Assembly (NCBI GenBank): GCA_903864835.1
Contig: CAIPHK010000004.1
Location: 64,448-128,447 of the forward strand
DNA from: an uncultured bacterium
GTDB taxonomy: Bacteria; Margulisbacteria; Marinamargulisbacteria; SXXA01
Length of the DNA: 64,000 nt
Direction: 5' to 3'
Position numbers and translations under genes: made by a program. The notes under the pieces were generated by a model. That model worked only from the letters and a program-made list of their open reading frames with translations, was not told the origin of the DNA and ran no database searches. This document shows, piece after piece, positions 61,420 to 63,323 of this stretch. How positions within the stretch are numbered: the first letter of the stretch is position 1; each line of letters begins with the position of its first letter.

Positions 61420-61469
61420 TTAAACGACATTCATACAACCAAACTTCGGTTCGTAACTTTTTCCACCCT

Positions 61470-61660
61470 CATTTTTCATCCAACTAAGTTCAGTTCGTCA
61501 CCATCCCCGCAGGGGACTTTCATCCAACTTTAATTCCACACCCCATTTTCAACCTCATTTTTAGTTCGTCACTAACCCTCTACGGGACAATCATCCAACC
61601 TCAAGTTTTTCATTTCCAGTTCGTGAACCACCCCGAAAGGGACATTCATCCAACTGTTCC
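61470..61660 (+). repeat. Three or four degenerate direct repeats of 45 to 70 bp immediately 3' of tRNA-Ser. Each has a conserved frame (agttcgtNaNc ... ttcatccaac) around a small hairpin whose loop varies (ccccGCAgggg, ccctCTAcggg, ccccGAAaggg).
   Basis: Found by direct inspection. The stems are conserved while the loops differ. Confidence 0.6.
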
Positions 61661-61883
61661 CCAGCTCTGTTTTCTCGCAACAACTCCTGATAGGTAATAG
61701 ATACACACAGTGCAATAGCCTCATTCAACTGAGCGTGGAGGCCTCAAGGGCTTGTTGGCTTGAACTCAGGTTAGTAGAAATAGGTGTCTCTTTTGTCGCA
61801 ATGAACTCCTGTTTAGTCACCACACCTGATTTGTCGCAACAAGAGCCTCCCTGGATCTGGAATCCACCGGTTATACTCTTGGC

Positions 61884-63323
61884 ATGGATTTCCCCCAACA
61901 TCTGACGGACGCCGATATCCGGAAACTGCTTTCGGTAATCGACGATCCACGGGATTCTGCAGTCATTGTGCTGGTACTCAGCACGGGCGTTTTTCTGTCT
62001 GAGTTGATCGAACTGAACCTTGATTCAGTTGATCTTGAAAAGAAAGAAATCTCCGTTGATGGCAAACGGAAGAGGACCTTGGGTCTGACTGATCCGGCGA
62101 TCTCAGCCATTTCCGAATATTTGAAAATACGTCCCAAAACTCCCGAAGTTGCTTTGTTTGTGACTGAGCGAGGGGTTCCAAAAAGACTGTCTGAAAGAAG
62201 TATTGATCACATCATCCGATGCGCCGCAAAAGACGCTGACTTGGATGTGAACTACCATGTGATTCGCAACACAGCCATTATTCGATTGCTGAAGAAAACT
62301 GATCCAAAAACTGCTGCAAAGTTGCTTGGTGTTGAGCGTAACGCACTGGATCGATTCTCAGATCAATCAGCTCAACAATCATCACCTCAGCCTCACACGG
62401 CTGCCGAATGGGATCCAATGGACACTCGATCCAGCTTGAAAAAGATTGTCGATATTATTCATCCAACCACTCAGCCGGAGTTCCCTCAAAAACCAGTTCA
62501 GTCGCTGACTTCCTTTTGTATCATCGGCAGAGACAAAACACTTTGCGAAGCAACTGAAGCCGTTCAAAACAACCAATCAATTTTGCTCACCGGTCCGGCC
62601 GGCGTCGGTAAATCTCATGTGCTCAATGCGTTGGCCGATACATTTCCCGATTCGATTTTGATCAAGTCACCGGTTCCGTTCAAGCCGATGCTTTTGGAAA
62701 TTTCTAAAGCGATTTGTCCCGACTCTGTATTCACGCAGCGCACTCCCAATGCTGAGATTTTGGAGGCGATTTTTTCTGCTGACACTTTAGTTCCACCGGT
62801 GATTCTCATCGACAATCTCGACCGGCTGAAAGTTTCTGAAGAAGAAATCATGATGAGTTTGACGGACAAGTTTCCTGTTGTGGCGACGGCTGGTGGAAAA
62901 CCGGATCGGCTGAAAAGTTTGTGGTGGAAATTTCAAGAATTGCCGGTTGAGCCGTTGGATTTGGAAACAACTAAGCAGCTGATTTCTCATTTACTGTAAA
63001 AGCATTCGATGAATCCAGATGAATACACAATGCTTGAAACTAAAGTGTTGAACTTGGCCAACGGAAATCCATTTGCTGTGGTTGAGCTCATTTCTCAACT
63101 TCCGGGAAGCAAAAAAGTGACCGCCGATCATATTCGAGAGATCCATCATGAAGCTGGAATTGTGTATCGTGATTGGACTTGGATCTTTATGGTGCTTTGG
63201 GGATTGCTGGTGATTTCGAGATTTATTGCGCTTGGGACGCATTCTTTTGAAGGCTACATTTTAGCGGGAATCGGAACGACGGTGTTTTTGACGTTCAAAA
63301 CTTTGGCGAGGATGAAACGGTGA
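61884..63323 (+). CDS. A degenerate tyrosine-recombinase (integrase) catalytic-fold domain fused to an AAA+ ATPase and a C-terminal 2-TM region. The reading frame is interrupted by an in-frame TAA at 62997.
   Basis: The integrase fold is recognisable (LSTGVFLSEL, HVIRNTAIIRLL, LLGVERNALDRF), but catalytic Arg I (TGLR becomes TGVF), His/Trp III (LLGH becomes LLGV) and Tyr (becomes Phe) are replaced. Then come Walker A GPAGVGKSH and Walker B ILIDNLD. After the TAA the same frame continues through a GNPFAVVEL lid-like segment and two hydrophobic helices. Confidence 0.55.

Follow-up and report, generated by a model that had tools for sequence, protein, structure and literature searches.

The 64,000-nucleotide (nt) stretch of contig CAIPHK010000004.1 analysed here (the window) derives from an uncultured bacterium of the Margulisbacteria. 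Directly 3′ of a tRNA-Ser gene it contains an interrupted frame of 479 codons (61884-63323; features of the window lie on the + strand unless stated otherwise) for a tyrosine-recombinase fold lacking its catalytic residues, a P-loop ATPase and a membrane hairpin, followed by a gene for a YdjM-type membrane metallohydrolase. The explanation that best accounts for the data, to which a probability of about one-half can be attached, is that the protein is a domesticated, membrane-tethered and nucleotide-dependent DNA-binding switch that works with the hydrolase, and that this switch was recently broken or split in this particular genome. An earlier annotation made by a model from the sequence alone (the original prediction) had proposed that a domesticated integrase provides DNA binding for a membrane-associated machine powered by ATP. 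That remains the best reading, and it needs four additions: a lineage-specific stop codon, active relatives on plasmids, a constant hydrolase partner and a conserved promoter array. The module appears to be undescribed, although its component parts are of known kinds; no description of the two-gene module was found in the searchable literature.

The interrupted gene and its predicted product

The first open reading frame, ORF A (61884-62999), encodes 371 amino acids comprising a XerA-like fold, a linker and an ATPase core. The Pfam family Phage_integrase matched residues 7-149 (E 4e-16), and the catalytic-domain fold, without catalytic residues, spans ~61890-62357. When a profile of the clade was compared with the PDB, archaeal XerA was matched at 8e-15, with TGlFlSEL placed on TGVRVGEL and HaLRNTF on HvLRHTF. 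The integrase fold recognized in the original prediction from its TGxxxSEL, HxxR and LLGx motifs is thus upheld, and the alignment with XerA also agrees with the predicted loss of Arg I, His III and the catalytic Tyr. Arg I is Phe (TGVFLSEL), His II and Arg II are retained while His III is Asn (YHVIRNT), and Tyr is Phe (LLGV..LDRF), so that the catalytic pattern of the window clade reads F-H-R-N, V for the His of LLGH, and then F. By fold and homology ORF A belongs with the tyrosine recombinases; it does not carry their full catalytic residue set. It shares the fold of the Xer recombinases (XerA, XerC/XerD, PF00589) but lacks their N-terminal core-binding (SAM-like) domain: no matches to PF02899 or PF13495 were obtained, the XerA alignment starts at residue 3, and the protein opens a few residues before the catalytic domain. 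Unlike Xer proteins, it is also fused to an ATPase and a membrane hairpin, and no inverted-repeat core site is evident at the window locus. No other tyrosine recombinase was found in the 64-kb window, in agreement with the original statement that a canonical integrase is missing; relatives of the large serine recombinases present at other loci (see below) were likewise not found there.

A disordered linker (~62360-62519) leads to the ATPase core, where Pfam AAA_16, AAA_22 and AAA matched residues 215-326. The core contains a Walker A motif of the form GxxGxGK[ST] (GPAGVGKS, 62592-62615) and a Walker B motif of the form hhhhD (VILIDNLD, 62799-62822). At the column of the putative sensor-1 Arg the window protein has VVATAGG; the residues for nucleotide binding are thus retained in the window clade, whereas the putative sensor of hydrolysis is lost. 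Searches with the ATPase fold returned TnsC and MuB as top matches, and the nearest structural neighbors are TnsC, MuB, Cdc6/ORC and DnaA, together with NB-ARC/STAND proteins. The hhhhD(D/N) form of the Walker B motif and the GxP motif that follows the core (GNPFAVVEL) are features that we take to be STAND/NB-ARC traits. The domain is therefore best described as a TnsC/MuB/Cdc6-like ATPase with NB-ARC/STAND motifs (hhhhDN, GNP) rather than as a classical AAA+ unfoldase, so that the AAA+ label given originally holds as far as a P-loop ATPase is concerned but can be made more exact. In contrast to MuB, Cdc6/Orc1 and DnaA, the window protein has no winged-helix domain or DnaA domain IV, has lost the putative sensor-1 Arg and possesses a membrane hairpin; DNA recognition would have to come from the recombinase fold.

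Downstream of the core, the same frame encodes a helical lid with the GNP motif (ANGNPFAVVEL, 63057-63089) and two membrane helices (63174-63236, with a Kyte-Doolittle peak at residues 440-444, and 63255-63308) separated by a conserved THSFEG loop. Both helices are present in an AlphaFold model, and together with the alignments they bear out the original description of the segment beyond the stop codon. No C-terminal sensor repeat arm is present, and the two-helix membrane hairpin occupies its place. The AlphaFold model of an intact homologue (P0002) comprises a compact N-terminal domain, a disordered linker (165-212), the ATPase with its helical lid, and two terminal helices (432-452 and 455-478).

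The frame is split by an in-frame TAA at 62997-62999, which replaces a Gln conserved in homologues (LTQxHSMNP); the preceding Thr is also altered, to Leu. The continuation of the frame (63000-63323) includes ORF B, which starts at ATG 63009. A search of 5.8 billion proteins yielded only 22 relatives, and all 19 close homologues that were aligned are single continuous proteins of 464-530 amino acids spanning both window ORFs, the closest (P0001, 92% identity) being intact. The fusion of recombinase fold and Walker A/B ATPase that had been read across the two frames is thus genuine. Given that TAA terminates 25 of the 43 longest ORFs of the window and is the commonest stop there, its reassignment as a sense codon was ruled out. 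An assembly error was also ruled out: contigs from two other assemblies (L023 and L024) are identical to the window over 6.6 kb including the TAA, and the exact 371-residue product is recorded on at least eight contigs from several assemblies, a confirmation that is only partly independent, as the assemblies may share reads. On these comparisons the TAA is taken to be a real allele and its lesion to be limited to the window lineage, not a family trait. Of 137 residues invariant in the clade, the window copy lacks a single one, the Thr of the TAA motif, and so retains 136. Because the 479 codons carry no second lesion, the break is either recent or tolerated. The gene would then be freshly inactivated or made as two polypeptides, translation of the second starting at a conserved Met codon 9 nt past the stop; no Shine-Dalgarno sequence was found at this codon.

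Family members and the hydrolase partner

A profile search of 1.84 billion cluster representatives returned 61 clusters at E ≤1e-30. Well over a hundred proteins of 480-520 residues cover the whole profile, whereas proteins of ~300 residues match only its ATPase and membrane part. Full-length members range from 92% down to ~20% identity. Alignments were made with 38 members and then with 135 full-length members; the latter sample is not unbiased and the counts derived from it are indicative only. The full RHRHHY set (GLRVSE, HxLRHTFAT, LLGH...Y) is carried by 44 of the 135. Approximately 85 lack both Arg I (Phe in 75) and His III, and 66 of these retain Tyr, the change of Tyr to Phe being confined to the immediate clade of the window (19 sequences). 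The predicted loss of Tyr therefore applies to the window clade; the wider inactive clade keeps this residue and a distant plasmid clade keeps the complete set. The putative sensor-1 Arg belongs to an AAR motif that follows strand 4; 40 of 45 active-type members have it, whereas an acidic residue (Glu or Asp) replaces it in 74 of the remaining 90. Almost all members keep Lys in the Walker A motif (133 of 135), and all keep the Pro of GNP (135 of 135). Given that loss of the sensor-1 Arg tracks the inactive members, these appear to have abandoned recombinase catalysis and ATPase turnover in concert.

Named members of the inactive clade come from metagenome-assembled genomes (MAGs) of Candidatus Saganbacteria and Margulisbacteria; the SdhA protein encoded in the window is 84% identical to a Margulisiibacteriota protein. 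Members of the active clade are carried by plasmids of cultured Bacteroidota (Haliscomenobacter hydrossis pHALHY01 and pHALHY02, Flavobacterium pA5BP1, Spirosoma pTS and a Flammeovirga plasmid) and by a plasmid-like contig with Rep_1 and SSB genes. Distant members also match NB-ARC in Pfam. Truncated N-terminal copies of ~105-120 residues are found at L020 (9998-10384) and L021 (1573-1932), the latter retaining the promoter array described below. In current annotation the products of the gene pair are labelled only "site-specific integrase," "AAA family ATPase," "EcfA2" or "metal-dependent hydrolase." A phage origin was considered and rejected, scans of viral contigs having given only generic integrase-domain matches and never the full architecture.

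The hydrolase gene of the window, for a polytopic membrane protein of the YdjM/DUF4184 type, starts at GTG 63447 after AAGGGG and runs past the window end (63447-64000); elsewhere gene callers place its start at GTG 63384. Pfam YdjM was matched at E 3.6e-28 on the extended copy in L023, and the first ~150 residues of the partner proteins match PF04307 at E 1e-26 to 1e-30. Nearly all loci have the pairing. The hydrolase gene is adjacent to the family gene or within a few genes of it in the window, in L003, L006, L008, L025, L115 and L116 and in the active-clade loci L027 and L028, and lies 4.5 kb downstream of it in L026. The pairing also holds on all of the Bacteroidota plasmids listed above. 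On plasmids of Nitrosococcus oceani and Methylobacter, a version consisting of the ATPase and membrane hairpin only is again found beside the hydrolase. Because these head-less versions keep the partner, the stable unit is, on the gene orders compared, the ATPase-hairpin protein plus the hydrolase, with the recombinase domain as a frequent N-terminal addition.

Further genes accompany the pair at some loci. On gammaproteobacterial plasmids an ORF of 217-279 residues without a Pfam match overlaps the start of the ATPase-membrane gene (L112, 4451-5290; L113, 5334-5987) and may replace the recombinase head. A gene for a 130-residue protein of the 23S_rRNA_IVP family (an Avd-like four-helix bundle) lies between the family and hydrolase genes in L006 (7493-7885) and L008 (4659-5054). 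In a Saganbacteria MAG (L116, 5185-6904), the family gene follows 37 nt after genes for a histidine kinase and a receiver-only response regulator. The partners share their PF04307 region with Escherichia coli YdjM, an inner-membrane protein of the SOS regulon whose function is unassigned; they differ from it in their size (326-554 residues), their long extra C-terminal regions and their linkage to the ATPase gene, and no LexA box was identified with them. Comparison with PADLOC-DB 2.0 gave matches to the ATPase at the level of the P-loop only (best E 1.4e-4 over ~27 residues) and none to the partner or the small neighboring ORFs, and assignment to a known defence system was rejected on this basis.

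Repeats and promoter boxes upstream of the gene

ARAGORN and Rfam (E 1e-8) agree on the tRNA-Ser gene (anticodon TGA, 61332-61419) that was said to precede the repeats. The spacer of 465 nt between it and the next gene contains a single family of direct repeats. An isolated right-hand repeat box, GACATTCATACAAC (61426-61439), stands immediately 3′ of the tRNA and is followed by a degenerate copy (~61448-61484) that retains GGTTCGT and TCATCCAAC without the core. Three 37-nt copies then match the full pattern exactly: copy 2 (61492-61528; AGTTCGTCA-N14-GACTTTCATCCAAC), copy 3 (61563-61599) and copy 4 (61618-61654), the last being nearest to the gene and best conserved between loci. For the pattern AGTTCGTSA-N14-GACWWTCATCCAAC, the three exact copies compare with none expected from shuffles of the window. 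The original count of three or four direct repeats is consistent with these three exact copies and one or two degenerate ones. Their tandem arrangement is not, since Tandem Repeats Finder gave no match and the copies are interspersed at spacings of 44, 71 and 55 nt. The 37-nt repeats are common to the window, L003, L013, L015 and L016 and represent an elaborated form of a shorter motif, RGTTCGW, of which 31 instances lie on the gene strand between -600 and -225, where 1.5 would be expected.

Nearer to the gene lies a second set of sites. Three YCGCAAYRA boxes (61675-61683, 61796-61804 and 61834-61842), proposed as protein-binding iterons upstream of the promoter, fall within 168 nt (61675-61842) and all on the + strand, with a degenerate box between the second and third; the whole window contains 17 matches compared with 6.4 expected. 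The 230 bp before the ATG could be aligned across 15 sequences from 14 loci, in which the CGCAAY boxes are conserved. The order is a distal box with its flank (TAGxCGCAAYAACTCCTGATAGG), three more CGCAAY boxes ~21 bp apart, a T-rich tract, and then TCAATATAAT six nt 5′ of the ATG. In the window this last element is a -10-like TATACT (61872-61877) and in most other loci it is TATAAT. From its position it should yield a leaderless mRNA; a simple promoter scan did not call TATACT and found no good -35 element. Between box 1 and box 2, most loci also contain an imperfect inverted repeat, TGAGCGTrG...CcACGyTCA, with a spacer of 25-30 nt (alignment columns ~75-120, corresponding to ~61715-61785 of the window), the interior of which was misaligned by MAFFT.

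Loci with proteins of no more than 39-44% identity also have the boxes (L025, and L115 in the form CGCCAYAA). When 372 kb of the window and the other loci were scanned, 22 clusters of at least three boxes were found, and 21 of these, from ~12 distinct loci, lie directly upstream of a family gene. Because the array is so tightly linked to this gene alone, the product of the gene is itself the obvious candidate to bind it.

The original prediction had described the repeats as structured, each built around a small hairpin with a conserved stem and a differing loop, and this description did not survive the controls. In the spacer Rfam recognized the tRNA alone above threshold; the 246-nt repeat region folds no better than its shuffles (z-score -0.82); and RNAalifold predicted no pairs in the 15-sequence upstream alignment. 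Over 15 copies from five loci, bases of the proposed 4-bp stem pair in 72% of cells, a proportion equalled by shuffled controls, and a change on both sides of the stem was observed in one cell only. A structured RNA was therefore rejected. The 37-nt repeats and CGCAAY boxes are better read as candidate protein-binding DNA sites. Inverted repeats were not detected in 61300-61900, where the conserved sites are direct repeats, and a recombination site of two inverted arms around a 6-8 bp spacer was not found at the window locus. The GTTC-N2-GAAC within repeat 4 does not match the consensus of a LexA/Cheo box, which was also rejected.

Genomic setting and competing explanations

Family genes lie directly downstream of three different tRNA genes, namely Ser in the window, Glu in L012 and Arg in L006. 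When 61300-61900 was compared with the other loci by BLAST, similarity between the window and L015 began at 61414, the terminal CGCCA of tRNA-Ser. Both the tRNA boundary and homology from the tRNA 3′ end that mark a tRNA island are thus present; the far edge of the island lies past base 64000, and L023 extends 856 nt further. A tRNA-end-like CCGCCA with the right-hand box also opens the repeat region in L003 (inverted copy), L013, L015 and L016. Such CCGCCA-led fragments were considered as possible tRNA 3′ halves by comparison of spacing, and in L003, L015 and L016 the distance from a TTCGAA-like element to CCA is 18 nt, as against 13 nt in a tRNA. The cargo downstream varies and includes many defence genes (MmeI, HEPN, AbiE, GmrSD, OLD); in several genomes a Poly_export gene is again found there. 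Upstream, the window and L003 have Mdh-Sdh-epimerase synteny in common. Taken together, these features suggest that the gene pair resides at the border of a recombination hotspot.

Large serine recombinase genes (Resolvase + Recombinase + Zn_ribbon_recom) occur at L006 (2539-5530), L008 (1037-2575), L003 (20695-21461) and L013 (23-358). They are directly upstream of the family gene in L006/L007 (two genes, following tRNA-Arg(acg) in L006) and L008 and at the far island end in L003; the L013 copy is an N-terminal fragment with a VSTDRQ motif. In L003, the repeat-box-promoter region and the first ~16 codons (9619-10048) have a 435-bp inverted duplicate (20529-20101, 89.7% identity) just downstream of the serine recombinase gene, where it drives an unrelated 114-residue ORF. 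A phase-variation switch was rejected here because the duplicate covers only the promoter and ~16 codons and its inversion would leave the protein unchanged.

Other features of the window were recorded in passing. An ORF of 1243 residues without a Pfam match (57419-61150, - strand) lies between the epimerase gene and tRNA-Ser and is absent from the syntenic L003. The L023 and L024 contigs start at ~57377-57380, just outside the 3′ end of this ORF, and stop at ~64853-64856 inside the hydrolase gene, a pattern that may reflect strain variation or repeats at these two positions. Farther upstream, an ORF of 1475 residues (35619-40046) carries Glu_syn_central (101-369) before GATase_2 (1104-1368), the reverse of the usual domain order of glutamate synthase.

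The mechanism proposed for the DNA-binding switch is as follows. In the inactive clade, the recombinase fold would serve only as a sequence-specific DNA-binding head. Nucleotide binding would drive oligomerization of the ATPase on DNA, as in TnsC, MuB, ORC and STAND regulators, and the oligomer would align several heads on the direct repeats 5′ of its own promoter, that is, on the CGCAAY boxes ~21 bp apart and, further upstream, on the GTTCG-containing 37-nt repeats. The membrane hairpin would tether the complex to the membrane, next to the hydrolase. Rather than DNA integration, the result would be an accessory module, for conflict or maintenance, that regulates its own expression and, in a manner coupled to the membrane, controls or recruits the hydrolase.

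Several points weigh against this proposal. The assignment of box binding to the family protein comes only from co-occurrence, and two inactive-clade loci (L026 and L116), where the family gene directly follows another gene, have no box array. An isolated catalytic domain without a core-binding domain may bind DNA weakly. The sensor-1 position was assigned from motif order rather than from a nucleotide-bound structure, and the AlphaFold model of P0002 is of moderate quality (pLDDT 73.6, pTM 0.42), with unreliable domain packing. Given the premature stop, the module may simply be dead in the source organism. Finally, a role in conflict is not established, PADLOC having matched no known defence family.

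The competing explanations and the DNA-binding switch shade into one another. A precedent for the switch, and also for the mobile-element helper considered below, is TnsF, an inactivated tyrosine-recombinase domain that chooses target DNA for the AAA+ protein TnsC in Tn6022-like Tn7 elements (Faure et al. 2023, PMC10293859). In the present family both functions reside in one polypeptide, zinc fingers and core-binding domains are absent, the protein is membrane-anchored, and the partner is a YdjM-type hydrolase; genes for TnsA/TnsB or TniQ, and transposon ends, were found in none of the locus gene tables. A broader scheme, which is doubtful, would unite the two halves of the family as one widespread two-gene module: in plasmid members, nucleotide-driven oligomerization at the membrane would gate a live recombinase, whereas in the Margulisbacteria/Saganbacteria-like lineage the dead recombinase would be a membrane-tethered reader of iterated DNA sites, marking or regulating the tRNA-linked hotspot at which large serine recombinases deposit defence cargo. 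The protein would then be a one-polypeptide analogue of TnsF plus TnsC for serine rather than DDE recombinases.

In a separate explanation, which we consider unlikely, the dead head and TnsC/MuB-like ATPase would be a mobile-element helper, selecting targets for or regulating the large serine recombinases at tRNA islands, with the 37-nt repeats as binding sites of recombinase or selector at the island edge. The three tRNA settings, the similarity that begins at the tRNA 3′ CGCCA, the serine recombinase genes of L003, L006/L007 and L008 and the fragment in L013, the variable defence-rich cargo, the inverted duplicate beside the L003 recombinase, the TnsC and MuB fold matches and the example of TnsF would all fit. 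However, serine recombinases and transposases are missing from the window, L001, L009 and L025; the constant partner is instead the hydrolase, which is retained on plasmids showing no serine recombinase nearby; and the conserved chromosomal synteny speaks against movement of the pair itself.

Another proposal makes the pair a STAND-style defence or plasmid-maintenance system, in which the ATPase would sense a membrane signal and oligomerize. In active members the recombinase domain would thereby be turned on as the effector and cut DNA, a role of effector that in inactive members would fall to the YdjM-type hydrolase, which is related to phospholipase C and P1 nuclease. STAND/NB-ARC regulators with DNA-binding heads include those of the MalT and AfsR/SARP type. 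Like these, the family protein has a putative N-terminal DNA-binding module and direct repeats upstream of its promoter; it differs in having no TPR/WD sensor arm, in being much shorter and membrane-tethered, and in a head derived from a recombinase rather than a helix-turn-helix. The NB-ARC, nSTAND and AAA_16 matches and STAND-type motifs, the presence of the module beside Rep, toxin-antitoxin and Abi genes on plasmids and in defence islands, the pairing of head-less versions with the hydrolase, and a weak match of one partner protein to Zn-dependent phospholipase C are in its favor. Given the lack of a significant PADLOC match and of a sensor repeat domain, and a conserved chromosomal position and dedicated promoter array that look more like a resident regulatory module, it is improbable as stated; it overlaps with the DNA-binding switch and differs mainly in biological purpose.

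Finally, a decaying remnant, that is, the leftover integrase of an old tRNA-integrated island without present function, with the TAA as one step of erosion, would suit the classic integrase position directly 3′ of a tRNA, the lost catalytic residues, the stop shared by other assemblies and the truncated copies of L020 and L021, but this too is improbable. The inactive architecture is full length across clades down to 39-44% identity, with invariant Walker A, GNP and membrane-loop motifs, and the partner gene and promoter boxes are conserved; in the window copy itself the clade-invariant residues are intact but for one. Given this conservation, the family is no relic, and a recent break concerns no more than this one allele. 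The island remnant offered as an alternative in the original prediction fits only the TAA.

For the window, the outcome is narrower: what lies there is no integrase gene, the reading of the repeats as RNA hairpins fails, and this gene copy is interrupted. If the DNA-binding switch is correct, the family would provide a second, independent case, after TnsF, of a tyrosine-recombinase fold stripped of catalysis and reading DNA for an AAA+ switch, here, unlike TnsF, with the fold and the ATPase fused and tied to the membrane. It would also define a conserved and testable gene pair that now carries generic annotation only, and its active and inactive members would form a natural series in which to follow the domestication of a recombinase and to ask why an ATPase and a membrane hydrolase accompany it.

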